From Verrucomicrobiota bacterium (lineage in GTDB: Bacteria; Verrucomicrobiota; Verrucomicrobiia; Verrucomicrobiales; DEV007), in the NCBI GenBank assembly GCA_045046875.1, contig JASFYY010000139.1:1-11164 (forward strand): a stretch of 11,164 bases of DNA. The letters are read 5' to 3'. The notes under the pieces are model-generated. The model did not search any database and was not told the DNA's origin. It worked only from the letters and a program-made list of their open reading frames with translations. Made by a program: the position numbers and the translations under genes. Each line of letters opens with the position of its first letter. Positions within the stretch are counted from its first letter, which is position 1. Of this stretch, positions 831-10,618 are shown piece by piece.

Positions 831-861
831 TTAACCACGGATAGCACGGATTAACGCGGAT
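831..861 (+). repeat. TTAACC-headed short tandem repeat (12/9/10-nt units ending CRCGGAT), uninterrupted copy
   Basis: TTAACCACGGAT AGCACGGAT TAACGCGGAT. Related copies lie on the - strand at 8652-8768 and 8842-8915. Confidence 0.75.
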
Positions 862-6901: not shown

Positions 6902-6925
6902 AAAAGAAGGGAATAATACTTCCCT
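6902..6925 (-). terminator. Possible weak intrinsic terminator after the arylsulfatase
   Basis: The - strand reads AGGGAA-GTATTA-TTCCCT followed by TCTTTT. The stem is short and overlaps the stop codon. Confidence 0.3.
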
Positions 6926-8648
6926 AAGGCTTTTTCCTGCGCGCCTCATTCCTTTTTTTACGCACTTCTGGCCATGGCACGACATGGGTGCGTTGCGCGT
7001 AGGCTTTCCACATCTTGGCTAATTGTTTCACCTTGTCTGGCATTGCCGCGGCTAAGTCGTTCAATTCACTGCGGTCTTTGCTGATGTCATACAATTCCCA
7101 CTTCCCTCTGATTCCATTTGCTACGAGTTTCCAATTGTCAGATCTGACTGCGCGGTTGCCTTCGTGTTCCCAGTAGATCGCCTCACGCTCAATTTGATCT
7201 CCTTTGCCTTCAAAAGCGAGACGCAAACTTTTCCCCTCCATCGGCGTGATATTTTTTCCACCGTGAAAAGTTTTTGGGTATTCCGCTCCTGCTACATCAA
7301 CACAAGTTGCCATCAGATCGATCAAGTGGCTTGGCGTGTTTTCCCACTCTCCCTCCCGACTGATTTTAGCCGGCCAGTGCGCGATCAGGGGAGTGGAGAT
7401 TCCGCCCTCGTGAACCCAGTGTTTATACTCGCGGAAAGGAGTGTTCGACACCGTGGCCCAGGCTTTGCCATAACCAATGTAAGTATCTGAGGGGCCAGCT
7501 AAAACTCCTTTGCCCTGTCGTATGGGGAACCCGTCGCGAGTCTGTTTCGGGATCATATCAAGTTGCAGGTAGCTTTTAGAAAGCGGATTAAGGGAGGGGT
7601 TCGCCTGGCGTTGGGCTCCATTATCACCTCGGCCCATGCCCTCGTGACTGCCTCCGTTATCTTGGAAAAAAAGTAGCAGCGTGTTTTCATATTGTCCCGT
7701 TTCTTTCAAGCTTTTCACAATACGCCCTATGCCCTGATCCATATTATCAATCATAGCAGCATAAACTTCCATGTTAACGATATCCCACTTCAGGTGATCG
7801 CTTTCCTTCCAACTGTCTTTTAATTTGCTGAGCTGCGCGCTCTGCGAATCGATCAATCCGAGTTTGATCATTTTTTCATAACGAGATTTCCGGATAACAT
7901 CATAACCTGCATCATACTGCCCCTTGTACTTTGCGATATCCCGTTTTCGCGCATGCATCGGCCAGTGTGCCGAGGTGTAAGCGACATACATGAAAAAAGG
8001 TGAGTCACCCTGATTCTGATGATGCTCCTGAACGAAGCGCACGGCATGGTCGCTGATCGCATCGGTGTAATAAAACTCCTCGGGTTGATACTCAGGATCG
8101 TCAAAGGGGGAGATGAAGGCATTGTCACGAGTCAGTGAATTAGGATCAAAAAAACTGCCTGCTCCGTGGATCGTGCCATAAAAACGATCAAAACCACGCT
8201 GAAGAGGCCAGTTGCGACGATCCGTATCAGATTTCGCCTGAGTTTTTTTTGTCACATGCCATTTGCCCGTAACATAAGTCCGGTAGCCTGCTGTTTTTAA
8301 TACTTCGGCAATAGTGACGCTGTTGCGATTGAGTTCACCTCGGTAGCCATCCATTCCCAGGTCATCCATCATATCGCCGATTCCAGCCTGATGGGGGTAT
8401 AGCCCGGTCAACAAACTGGCGCGAGTGGGACAGCAACGGGAGGTGTTGTAAAATTGTCGGAAGCGCAAGCCTCCCTCAGCCAGTTTATCAAGATTCGGAG
8501 TTTTGATTTCACTGCCATAACAACCAATATCTGAAATGCCCATATCGTCTCCCATCATGAGAATGATATTAGGGCGCTCCGCAGCAGCGTAAGTGGAAAT
8601 ACAGGCTAACTGCAAAGCGCAAATAGCAGCAATAATTTTTTTAATCAT
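6924..8648 (-). CDS. Arylsulfatase (formylglycine-dependent S1 sulfatase, AtsA/PAS-like), exported
   Basis: Signal peptide MIKKIIAAICALQLACISTYAAA, RPNIILMMGDDMG, catalytic CCPTRASLLTG, GYRTYVTGKWH, HWPMHA, DNGG, ELYDISKDRSELNDLA. Start 8648 is preferred over 8672 because that ATG lies inside a repeat. Confidence 0.93.
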   Translation of the reverse strand: MIKKIIAAICALQLACISTYAAAERPNIILMMGDDMGISDIGCYGSEIKTPNLDKLAEGGLRFRQFYNTSRCCPTRASLLTGLYPHQAGIGDMMDDLGMDGYRGELNRNSVTIAEVLKTAGYRTYVTGKWHVTKKTQAKSDTDRRNWPLQRGFDRFYGTIHGAGSFFDPNSLTRDNAFISPFDDPEYQPEEFYYTDAISDHAVRFVQEHHQNQGDSPFFMYVAYTSAHWPMHARKRDIAKYKGQYDAGYDVIRKSRYEKMIKLGLIDSQSAQLSKLKDSWKESDHLKWDIVNMEVYAAMIDNMDQGIGRIVKSLKETGQYENTLLLFFQDNGGSHEGMGRGDNGAQRQANPSLNPLSKSYLQLDMIPKQTRDGFPIRQGKGVLAGPSDTYIGYGKAWATVSNTPFREYKHWVHEGGISTPLIAHWPAKISREGEWENTPSHLIDLMATCVDVAGAEYPKTFHGGKNITPMEGKSLRLAFEGKGDQIEREAIYWEHEGNRAVRSDNWKLVANGIRGKWELYDISKDRSELNDLAAAMPDKVKQLAKMWKAYAQRTHVVPWPEVRKKRNEARRKKP

Positions 8649-8651
8649 AGG

Positions 8652-8768
8652 TTTAGTGCAAATCGGTGTCATTTGCCTTTGAGTAATAATCTCTGGCTAT
8701 TTGCTTTCGGGTAATTTCCTCCAGCTATCTCTACTTCGTTCCGATTCGCTACGCTCGGCTGTGGTTAA
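8652..8768 (-). repeat. TTAACC-headed repeat interrupted by tandem mini-inserts
   Basis: TTAACCACAG [58 bp, 8758-8701] AT AG [24 bp, 8696-8673] AT GACACCGAT TTGCACTAAA. Confidence 0.6.
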
Positions 8769-8841
8769 ATTTTCAAATTTTGGCTTATCAACTCTAATCG
8801 ATCTGAACCGTTGAAAGATATTGGCAGCTTTTTCTTTTCTT

Positions 8842-8915
8842 ATTTGCCTTCGGGTGGTGTCCTTCCGCTGTCTTGCTGCGCTGCGGCTGCGTCCATCCGC
8901 GAAATCCGCGGTTAA
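8842..8915 (-). repeat. TTAACC-headed repeat interrupted by a 43 bp mini-insert
   Basis: TTAACCGCGGAT TTCGCGGAT GGACGCAG [43 bp, 8886-8844] AT. Segment 8841-8873 matches 8698-8730 at 26 of 33 positions. Confidence 0.7.
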
Positions 8916-8925
8916 AATTCTTTAT

Positions 8926-10341
8926 TTATTTTTTCTTCTTTTTCCGCCTTTGTCTGACTTGATGTTCAAGGGCTTGCAACTCCGTCTGTTGCCCTTTGTC
9001 CCCACTGGCTTCCATCCAGGCTTTCAATTTACTCTTAAGCTCAGCCTTGACCGACGCTAAGCTGGGGTCATTGGCTAGATTTTTCCATTCGTAAGGATCC
9101 TTGTTTATATCATAGAGTTCCTCACTTGGGCGCACACGGTAGCGCTTCACCTTATCCGCCGCGTCGGCATCTCCTGCGGTGGCTTTGGCTTCCCATGAAA
9201 GAAATTCAGGTGATTCCATGCAGATGTTTTGAAACTCAACTTCTGGCGTCAAATTCCAGATATATTTATACCGTTCGCTACGGATCGAACGAATACCAAA
9301 TGAGTCTGATCCGCTGAGAATTCCCCGTGTGGTCATGATTCCGTAAACAAAGTTTTTGTGAGTTTTTTTCTTTCCTAGAAGAACGGGAAGAAAACTCTCT
9401 CCATCAAGGTCAGGATCCATGCCCCCACCAGCCGCATCGATGAACGTAGGCAGGAAATCAACGTATTCGATCATCGCATCGCTCACTTCACCGGCAGACA
9501 CCTTGCCTGGCCAACGAACAATGCAAGCGCTCTGTAAACCCGTGTCATAACAAGTCCATTTACCAAAAGGAAAAGAAGATCCCTGCTCGGAAACCACTAT
9601 TACCATCGTATTCTCAGCAAGATCGTTTTGTTTGAGCAGCGTCAACAGCACACCCACCTGATTATCAAAATAGGTGATTTCTGCCAAGTAACGAGTCATC
9701 GCTTCACGAGTCTCCGGTGTGTCGACAAAGTACGGGGGCAGCTTGAGATCAGCCGCTTTGTAACGCGACGCATCACCTTTGTTCCATGGGGAGTGTGGTT
9801 CATTAGAACAAGCGAATAGGCAAAAAGGCGTATCGTTTTGCTTCGATTCTTTCAGCAATGCGGCGATAGCCTCCATATTAGGATTTTTTTTCACCTTCCC
9901 GGCTGGCATATACTCGAAAGGAAAAACCTTTTTCGGTGAAATGTGAGTCTTGCCGCTAAGCGCGACTCGATAGTTGAGCTGTTTGAGGTAGTGGGCTACA
10001 CTTTTTGTCCCTTCTTTGGCAAAAGTATGATTCGGATAGGCACCGCTCTTCACGGGATAAAGTCCGGTATAAATATTGTGCCGCGTGGGTGAACACATCG
10101 GTGCCGCTTGAAAACAACGAGTGAAACGCATGCCTTCCGCTGCCAAACGATCAATATTTGGGGTGAACGCCTGACCACCGTAACAAGCAATGTCGCGGAA
10201 CGTGCAATCATCAGCGATGATGAATAGAAAATTGGGTTGGTCGGCGGCTGAGCTTGACCAAGAAAAATTCAGTAGCAAAGCTAAAGTGATCGTCAGTGCT
10301 TTTATAACTGCAGTTTTAGAAAAAGAACCTAATAATCCCAT
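8926..10341 (-). CDS. Sulfatase, N-sulfoglucosamine sulfohydrolase (SGSH)-like, exported
   Basis: Signal peptide, QPNFLFIIADD, catalytic CSPTRHNIYTG, GKTH, NEPHSPW, LPPYFVDTPETR, GKWTCYDTGL, RSIRSERYKYIWN, EELYDINKDPYEWKNLA. The subfamily is assigned by motif resemblance only. Confidence 0.9.
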   Translation of the reverse strand: MGLLGSFSKTAVIKALTITLALLLNFSWSSSAADQPNFLFIIADDCTFRDIACYGGQAFTPNIDRLAAEGMRFTRCFQAAPMCSPTRHNIYTGLYPVKSGAYPNHTFAKEGTKSVAHYLKQLNYRVALSGKTHISPKKVFPFEYMPAGKVKKNPNMEAIAALLKESKQNDTPFCLFACSNEPHSPWNKGDASRYKAADLKLPPYFVDTPETREAMTRYLAEITYFDNQVGVLLTLLKQNDLAENTMVIVVSEQGSSFPFGKWTCYDTGLQSACIVRWPGKVSAGEVSDAMIEYVDFLPTFIDAAGGGMDPDLDGESFLPVLLGKKKTHKNFVYGIMTTRGILSGSDSFGIRSIRSERYKYIWNLTPEVEFQNICMESPEFLSWEAKATAGDADAADKVKRYRVRPSEELYDINKDPYEWKNLANDPSLASVKAELKSKLKAWMEASGDKGQQTELQALEHQVRQRRKKKKK

Positions 10342-10394: not shown

Positions 10395-10596
10395 CACGCC
10401 TTTGACAAGCTGACAGGCCCAAGGGGCCGACCCTATGCTAGCCTAGGGCAAGTTCGCCCTGGGAATGGATGGTTTTGATTCTTAAGTCCCAACGGGACGG
10501 ACCTATCCGTTACAGATTTAGGGTCGCCCTTACAGGCTGACATAAGACCGCCCCTCTGGGGCTTAGGAAACAAGGCGAGCAGCTTGTAAAGCTGTG
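10395..10596. repeat. REP/BIME-like palindrome cluster (possible MITE-like unit)
   Basis: Hairpins GGCCC-AAG-GGGCC (10416-10428), CCTAGGGC-N6-GCCCTGGG (10442-10463) and GTCCC-AAC-GGGAC (10486-10498). Inverted copies at 10519-10538 and 10542-10564. Outer imperfect inverted repeat at 10395-10412 / 10580-10596. Confidence 0.75.
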
Positions 10597-10618
10597 TCAC
10601 ACGGGATTTCTCCTTTGG

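Follow-up and report, generated by a model that had tools for sequence, protein, structure and literature searches.

How mobile DNA of less than 50 nt moves has been an open question since the SDRs of Nostoc were described in 2008. The stretch of DNA analyzed here (the window; 11,164 nt, contig C139 of the draft genome G000, which is 5.59 Mb and 94.7% complete) raises this question at a single site, where an array of 9-nt repeats between two sulfatase-family genes (domain matches below curated cut-offs) is interrupted by a short insert. A preliminary description of the window read the insert as 43 nt placed exactly at AG^AT. The sequence and coordinates given there hold, without 8844-8886 the array does show the 12/9/10 units of its counterpart at 831-861, and on the sequence there is no target duplication at the insert. 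We find that the insert is a 45-nt element, one member of a dispersed family in G000. Because the ends of this family are defined, covariation fixes its fold, six related genomes hold both filled and empty alleles and the candidate enzymes are few, the question becomes testable here. The features of the window that bear on the insert are collected in Table 1.

Table 1. Coordinates of the element copies, their hosts and the neighboring genes in the window.
Feature	Position	Strand	Basis or remark
Element, long form, 45 nt, slightly decayed copy	8844..8888	-	Family profile and pattern
Hairpin A: G.C closing pair, G(N)A internal loops, GC/GC stem, GCA triloop	8870..8887	-	Fold inferred from covariation
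Hairpin B, long form: 3-bp basal stem, GNA internal loops, 1-2-bp inner stem, variable loop	8846..8868	-	Parsed copies and covariation
Host 9-mer array, left part: two whole units and start of third	8889..8915	-	Sequence, array comparison
Host 9-mer array, right part: AT and AAG tail	8839..8843	-	Host and element missing from G002
Uninterrupted host 9-mer array; third unit GG, not AG	831..861	+	Sequence
Second element copy (outer), broken in hairpin A by third copy	8673..8760	-	Hairpin-B profile
Third element copy (inner), 46 nt, AA...AA; uninterrupted outer-type copies read AG there	8701..8746	-	Parsed copies, run contigs
Second nest, host 9-mer array, left part	8761..8769	-	Sequence
Second nest, host 9-mer array, right part	8653..8672	-	Host and nest missing from G002
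Sulfatase-family gene upstream of insert	8926..10341	-	Below curated cut-offs; context only
Sulfatase-family gene downstream of insert	6924..8672	-	Below curated cut-offs; context only

Setting of the insert and assembly checks

The insert is not an assembly artefact, because genome G005 carries a nest identical in make-up to that of the window at 98% identity and a contig of run X1, which is perhaps not independent of G005, spans 8300-8915. A contig of run X4 passes over the region with 111 other letters instead. In G002 (90% identity), host and insert are both missing at the window site, as are host and nest at the second nest 100 nt away, and no allele with the host and without the element was found at the window's own site among the sister genomes and run contigs. 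The listed start of the downstream sulfatase-family gene falls in a host repeat, and its real start is likely to lie about 24 nt further on. A separate difference is seen at 8651-8654, where G005 and contigs of four runs have 14 extra bases; the apparent loss in G000 lies between two short direct repeats.

A dispersed family of intergenic elements

The preliminary description named many copies of the insert as a sign in its favor, and the insert is indeed not unique. Combining a profile of the right half (hairpin B) and a pattern for the left half (hairpin A), we count about 90 element sites in G000, almost all of them intergenic. The hairpin-B profile, seeded from 49 G000 copies, has 76 matches at E<=1 in G000 and none in a shuffled genome, and the hairpin-A pattern, which demands no pairing, has 46 and none, respectively. 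Just one of these 46 matches lies inside an ORF of at least 200 aa, although such ORFs make up 82% of the genome. Two other patterns were less specific: a first, loose one was dropped (982 matches versus 458 in the shuffle), and a generic pattern of the GNA architecture gave only 94 matches versus 48.

Hairpin A is found in six of six genomes of the genus (9-70 matches each; 0 in the reversed control). The long form of hairpin B is present in 4 of 61 genomes of the family, all within the genus of the source, and a search of 185,579 genomes returned 29 stretches with it, from two MAG record sets; the named records with the element are Verrucomicrobia MAGs. Related copies are rare elsewhere in the phylum. 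Of 300 other genomes in the phylum, four have a single match to a strict hairpin-A pattern, as do three viral contigs, and two of these seven outside matches (L138 and L152) are complete short forms of the element. Viral contigs contained no long form and the plasmid and phage collections no element match, while three matches from a metagenome scan were judged to be due to chance, as all lie in coding DNA and none has hairpin A. Rfam has no match to 8600-9000 of the window at E<=5. We found no description of the family in the literature compared, which covered the Nostoc SDRs through later papers that cite them.

The element brings its own ends

In the preliminary description, the AG to the left of the insert was part of the host. 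We find that, in three of three cases, empty G000 arrays matching the flanks of the window site have GG at the place of the AG...AA in the filled copy. GG also forms the last unit of such 9-mer arrays (the one following CGGAT) in 52 of 56 cases, and AG does so in one; in empty two-unit arrays (n = 182, versus 2 in the shuffle) AG accounts for 5 and AA for 3 of 364 units. Given that the empty sites read GG and that the G of the AG is paired with the final base of hairpin A, we assign the left AG to the element and not to the host, so that the element comprises the 45 nt of 8844-8888 rather than the 43 nt of 8844-8886.

Other sites give a broader view of the target. We parsed 46 of 76 filled sites and found a matching empty paralogue for 12 of these, reading AA (5), GG (4), TG (1), CA (1) or TA (1) and never AG. 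Empty REP-like hosts read GG in 15 of 15 cases, and 20 empty heptamers of the ATTTG/ATTTG type include six with AG and five with AA; other empty heptamers were too few to tabulate. For the MITE hosts, 8 filled copies compare with 4 empty GAAC copies and 48 AAAA copies among 67. Two host bases are replaced where the host reads GG, TG, GA or AG, and insertion looks precise where it reads AA. There is no target-site duplication, and the left flank is variable apart from the C or G next to the element.

A collinear G000 orthologue exists for 13 of 27 G005 entries. At two orthologous loci the host is retained and the element is the sole difference, with an empty allele reading TG at L050/C142 and GA at L038/C128, and most other collinear G005/G000 loci are either shared or differ by the whole host. 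At C113:12744, G005 and G003 are empty (AG) and a different short copy lies one base away in G001; at C113:7929, the AG of G000 corresponds to an additional inner copy in G005. AG can serve as a target, yet the element brings its own ends, exchanging 45 nt for 2 (net +43). Empty alleles in sister genomes, which the preliminary description had named as support for its reading, do exist, at loci other than the window's (L050/C142, L038/C128 and C113:12744). On this comparative evidence the element is mobile, and the replacement of two bases is the odd feature that every mechanism must explain.

Very short stems with a conserved fold

The element is made up of an A, hairpin A, a second A, hairpin B and a closing AA, and it occurs in a short form of 32 nt and a long form of 44-46 nt, most long copies measuring 42-47 nt. 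In the short form, which accounts for 23 of 89 parsed copies, hairpin B is a 3-bp GNA mini-hairpin. The right end is AA in 85 of the 89 copies and the preceding base is C or G in 88 of them; at the left end, A[AG] was demanded by the search patterns themselves. In the window copy, hairpin A has lost one base from its 3' internal loop.

To describe the fold we used 58 distinct long elements from loci of G000, G003 and G005 and from the loci of the 185,579-genome search, with duplicates collapsed and with copies that have unequal internal loops, such as that in the window, excluded. Stems of only 2-3 bp covary strongly in the element. In hairpin A, one stem pair is Watson-Crick in 51 of 58 elements and the other in 55 (shuffled means 26.5 and 34.2); in hairpin B, each of two pairs is so in 47 of 58 (shuffled means 30.0 and 31.1). 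Because the copies are related, none of these counts represents independent events. G.T pairs are tolerated. A MAFFT alignment of 30 copies, made independently, gave a covariation score for hairpin B that none of 500 shuffles reached, and slid controls scored lower. Base 2 of the element and the final base of hairpin A form a pair in 62 of 65 distinct sequences (33 G-C and 29 A-T). A further candidate pair in hairpin B was unsupported (9 of 58).

This fold is not the one proposed in the preliminary description, which paired CCGC with GCGG. That pairing depends on a change in this decayed copy, most copies reading GCCGG or GCTGG, and the 43-mer folds no better than its shuffles (z +1.01). RNA or DNA folding with standard energy models, which score sheared G.A pairs poorly, gave no significant stability. 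The triloop of hairpin A, which the pattern left free, is GAA in 30, GTA in 16, GCA in 8 and AAA in 4 elements, and hence GNA in 54 of 58. Its free middle base, together with the 2-bp stems, would fit DNA mini-hairpins with sheared G.A pairs, and the copies are probably under selection for the fold. According to the available part of one study, GCGNAGC hairpins are very stable as DNA, and the related RNA hairpin tested there is much less stable (PMC13037366).

Many hosts, including the element itself

The insert had been assigned to a single target repeat family. In fact, its hosts include 9-mer arrays, heptamer arrays, REP-like repeats beside a RAYT-like gene, a MITE, the element itself and coding DNA, and it enters them in several registers. 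The earlier reading as a tiny, non-autonomous, site-specific element is supported as to the many copies, the fixed ends, the nesting and the absence of target duplications and terminal inverted repeats, but not as to a precise insertion at a fixed AG^AT or a single target family.

Several of the hosts frame genes. GxxExxY genes lie between inverted pairs of 9-mer arrays, a four-helix-bundle gene lies between heptamers, and the RAYT-like gene (NF047646, below cut-off) is bordered by the REP-like host, in which a single unit is filled and the others are empty. Around the GxxExxY genes (G000 C133:61344-61751 and C6:27394-27774; L113, L115, L116 and L118), the unit type of the arrays changes from gene to gene. 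MITE copies carry the element in their hairpin loop, and a tree of 64 MITE copies, in which 41 of 61 inner branches are open, is compatible with one or several insertions into the MITE. The strand that carries the hairpins is the G-rich strand at 52 of 65 element loci; since empty 9-mer hosts show a similar bias (128 of 171; Fisher p 0.49 for the difference), the strand bias may come from the hosts. The gene upstream of the element is on the same strand at 38 of 60 loci.

In an example from coding DNA, the single contig of G266 has a short-form copy in frame in a sulfatase gene (L138:1501-1532), where it contributes 10 residues directly behind the signal peptide. Since a short-form insertion lengthens the DNA by 30 nt, it can enter genes in frame. 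Homologues of this sulfatase are without those ten residues and are too distant to be exact empty alleles. The copy is the sole pattern match in G266, which suggests that the sulfatase gene arrived carrying the element.

Other small inserts were seen along the way. A sister GNA-hairpin module of about 34 nt lies inside the REP-like host on six G000 contigs (C6, C35, C77, C87, C95 and C128; e.g., C35:190-225) and also in frame in some genes of a multicopy family of Y1 proteins of about 350 aa (C2, C55, C63 and C109); its GNA strand is on the C-rich strand at eight of eight loci, opposite to the element. A different insert, about 31 nt long, resembles the element at its left end but has another body; it sits in the AA of CACGAAT-type units (G000 C59:46282-46511 and C34:7518-7677).

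Candidate enzymes

The preliminary description looked to a longer copy encoding a transposase, recombinase or reverse transcriptase. None was found: there is no autonomous copy among the hairpin-A matches that lack a long hairpin B, and no ORF flanked by element copies. For this reason, mobilization in trans and chemistry of the HUH or recombinase kind remain proposals. Y1 HUH proteins are the only one of four enzyme families tested to have matches in all six hairpin-A genomes (4-28 each; 15 in G000, 20 in G003, 28 in G005 and 4-8 in the other three), but their co-occurrence with the element is weak evidence because such proteins are common in controls (6 of 14 genomes). In the 15 G000 Y1 loci and 18 stretches around Y1 matches of sister genomes, no locus has the element as its ends; one element lies there, inside the REP-like repeat beside the RAYT-like gene, and none frames a gene. 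The multicopy Y1 HUH family of about 350 aa occupies 13 loci in G000 (e.g., C1:242-1288 and C50:62898-63956).

The other families gave sparser results. Reverse transcriptase (PF00078) has no match in the drafts of G000, G001 and G002, three of the six carriers, and IS110 (PF02371) has none in G000 or G001, two carriers with 28 and 43 hairpin-A matches and drafts that are 95-96% complete. GxxExxY has no match in one of the six carriers, G005, which has 25 element copies and is 95% complete. A single GIY-YIG match was found, in a 539-aa frame.

How the element may move

We tentatively favor a reading in which the element is a non-autonomous micro-element that, in the form of single-stranded DNA, enters other repeats by means of a trans-acting enzyme, most likely a Y1 HUH protein of the RAYT/TnpA-like kind; naming Y1 HUH as the candidate is a guess. 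The candidate enzyme would read the fold of the single-stranded element, new insertions would arise at AA or AG after C or G, and filled units would then spread among sister host repeats, overwriting GG, TG or GA units. We invoke this secondary spread because it explains the overwritten GG, TG and GA. The fixed ends, the covariation, the GNA triloops, the many hosts and registers, the strand bias and the Y1 matches in six of six genomes all argue for single-stranded DNA and an enzyme. Counting against a Y1 enzyme acting on single-stranded DNA are the absence of gene-flanking copies, the commonness of Y1 proteins, a strand bias no stronger than that of the hosts and the lack of unusual predicted stability; among the contigs of the sequencing runs, no circle or excised form was seen. 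Furthermore, insertion of IS200/IS605 leaves the target bases intact and depends on a fixed target of 4-5 nt, and neither applies to the element. If an enzyme does read the fold and write a 30-45-nt tag without target duplication, this would be a new insertion chemistry.

The main rival, which we regard as somewhat unlikely, has no dedicated enzyme: hairpins would pause the polymerase or exclude SSB on exposed strands, and template switching or short-patch conversion would copy the element by way of short flanking homology. The replacement of GG, TG and GA follows directly from such copying, more readily than from single-stranded DNA and an enzyme, and the lack of an autonomous copy is accounted for as well. 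Enzyme-free copying also fits the fixed orientation relative to the host, the CAC..AT context common to REP-like and 9-mer hosts, and the poor binding of SSB to GNA mini-hairpins given in the available part of PMC13037366. It is hard, however, to obtain the same ends in this way in unrelated hosts that share almost no flank (the MITE loop, heptamers and coding DNA), a point at which an enzyme acting on single-stranded DNA does better, and conversion tracts would have to end 1-3 bases from the element ends many times over. We consider it improbable that the element spreads as in homing, where a GxxExxY PD-(D/E)xK protein or a RAYT would cut empty host units and repair from a filled, resistant copy would bring in the element with two neighboring bases. 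Homing typically co-converts flanking bases, and the element does interrupt both the 9-mer arrays around GxxExxY genes and the REP-like repeat around the RAYT-like gene; yet G005 combines its 25 copies with no GxxExxY match, the ends stay the same in hosts with different partner proteins, and selection on the fold is left unexplained.

Three further explanations have less in their favor. A mini-circle could be integrated by a recombinase of the IS110 or serine type acting at a 2-bp crossover core, with the fixed AR and AA ends as cores; this would suit both the two affected target bases and the missing target-site duplication. With such a core, the target dinucleotide would be expected at one end, whereas both ends are those of the element; the left R belongs to hairpin A, and PF02371 is without a match in G000 and G001. 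We hold this route to be very unlikely. We give scarcely more than slight credence to movement through an RNA copy and a reverse transcriptase, which would agree with the upstream genes on the same strand and the tolerated G.T pairs, but not with the lack of PF00078 matches in three genomes, with two-base stems and triloops that suit DNA better than RNA, or with the absence of a target-site duplication, a poly(A) and an Rfam match. Least credible is that the hairpin is not self-mobile, having grown in place once and been carried passively by host repeats. Host and element do appear and disappear together at the sites of the window, filled REP-like copies are near-identical and filled MITE copies are compatible with one origin. 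Passive carriage is nevertheless at odds with the many unrelated hosts and registers and with self-nesting, and it is largely refuted by the loci that keep the host and differ only in the element.

Comparison with known small repeats

Elhai et al. reportedly described SDR1-8 of Nostoc punctiforme and its relatives in 2008 as a class of 21-27 nt, members of which are said to nest in heptamer arrays, minitransposons and themselves and to share a fold with compensatory changes. The element is like the Nostoc SDRs in being very small (less than about 50 nt), dispersed, multi-copy and non-coding and, as far as SDRs are reported to behave so, in being inserted in other repeats and its own copies and in having a conserved fold with compensatory changes. 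It is unlike them in having two hairpins in 32-46 nt, against 21 nt for SDR5 and reportedly 21-27 nt for the class, and in belonging to another phylum (Verrucomicrobia). In the available parts of four sources, SDR5 is given as 21 nt inserted between bases 3 and 4 of HIP1, an insertion called precise, SDRs are reported only in Nostocaceae among HIP1-rich cyanobacteria, and no function or enzyme is assigned to them (PMC4390886, PMC5861425, PMC13756078, PMC3116915). In contrast to the precise insertion of SDR5, the element replaces two host bases at many sites and looks precise only at AA hosts, again without a target-site duplication. Its behavior resembles that of the SDRs of Nostocaceae, with the comparison made by description and not by sequence, and to call it an undescribed system, as had been done, was too strong. 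We do not file it as an SDR because its length falls outside the range, its insertion looks precise at some hosts and not at others, and the likeness is one of description only. A 50-kb plasmid of N. punctiforme, too little sequence to decide, has no SDR5-like insert and no hairpin-A pattern. An unlikely but wider reading is that there is a cross-phylum class of 30-46-nt single-stranded DNA mini-hairpin elements, known by fold and not by sequence, which would overwrite two target bases by a route distinct from DDE, HUH, serine, tyrosine or IS110 recombination and parasitize REPs, MITEs and tandem arrays.

Other small repeats share some of these properties. PATEs are non-autonomous IS200/IS605 derivatives with a hairpin at each end, no terminal inverted repeats, no target-site duplication and CAA at the right end. 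The element is like them in its one hairpin per end, its lack of terminal inverted repeats and target-site duplications, its strand bias and its right end CAA, and unlike IS200/IS605 derivatives in that it has no fixed 4-5-nt target and loses target bases; no TnpA gene with such ends was found. Unlike a MITE, it has neither terminal inverted repeats nor a target-site duplication. Like REPs and REPINs, it is short, extragenic, hairpin-forming and non-autonomous. In the available parts of the sources, REPs have a terminal GTAG or CGTC tag beside a 5-13-bp stem (PMC3733652), and some of them sit inside other palindromes (PMC3733652, PMC3116915). The element, by contrast, ends in A[AG] and AA without either tag, has stems of 2-3 bp and forms no inverted doublets. 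No RAYT gene is framed by element copies, and the REP-like repeat is here the host and not the element.

Some of the hosts have a counterpart elsewhere: the intergenic TAACTGA heptamer arrays of Beggiatoaceae are arrays of the same kind as some element hosts, and the available part of the source describes no nested hairpin element in them (PMC4679880). The window itself has intergenic heptamer arrays of other types at 1-65, 781-811 and 2437-2470, which resemble the arrays framing the four-helix-bundle gene at C113:51298. Several short hairpin repeats at 10400-10600, 5' of a sulfatase gene, resemble those flanking IS200-like genes in sister genomes. Finally, G000 has a very strong GC skew genome-wide, about +/-0.2 on most contigs longer than 40 kb.
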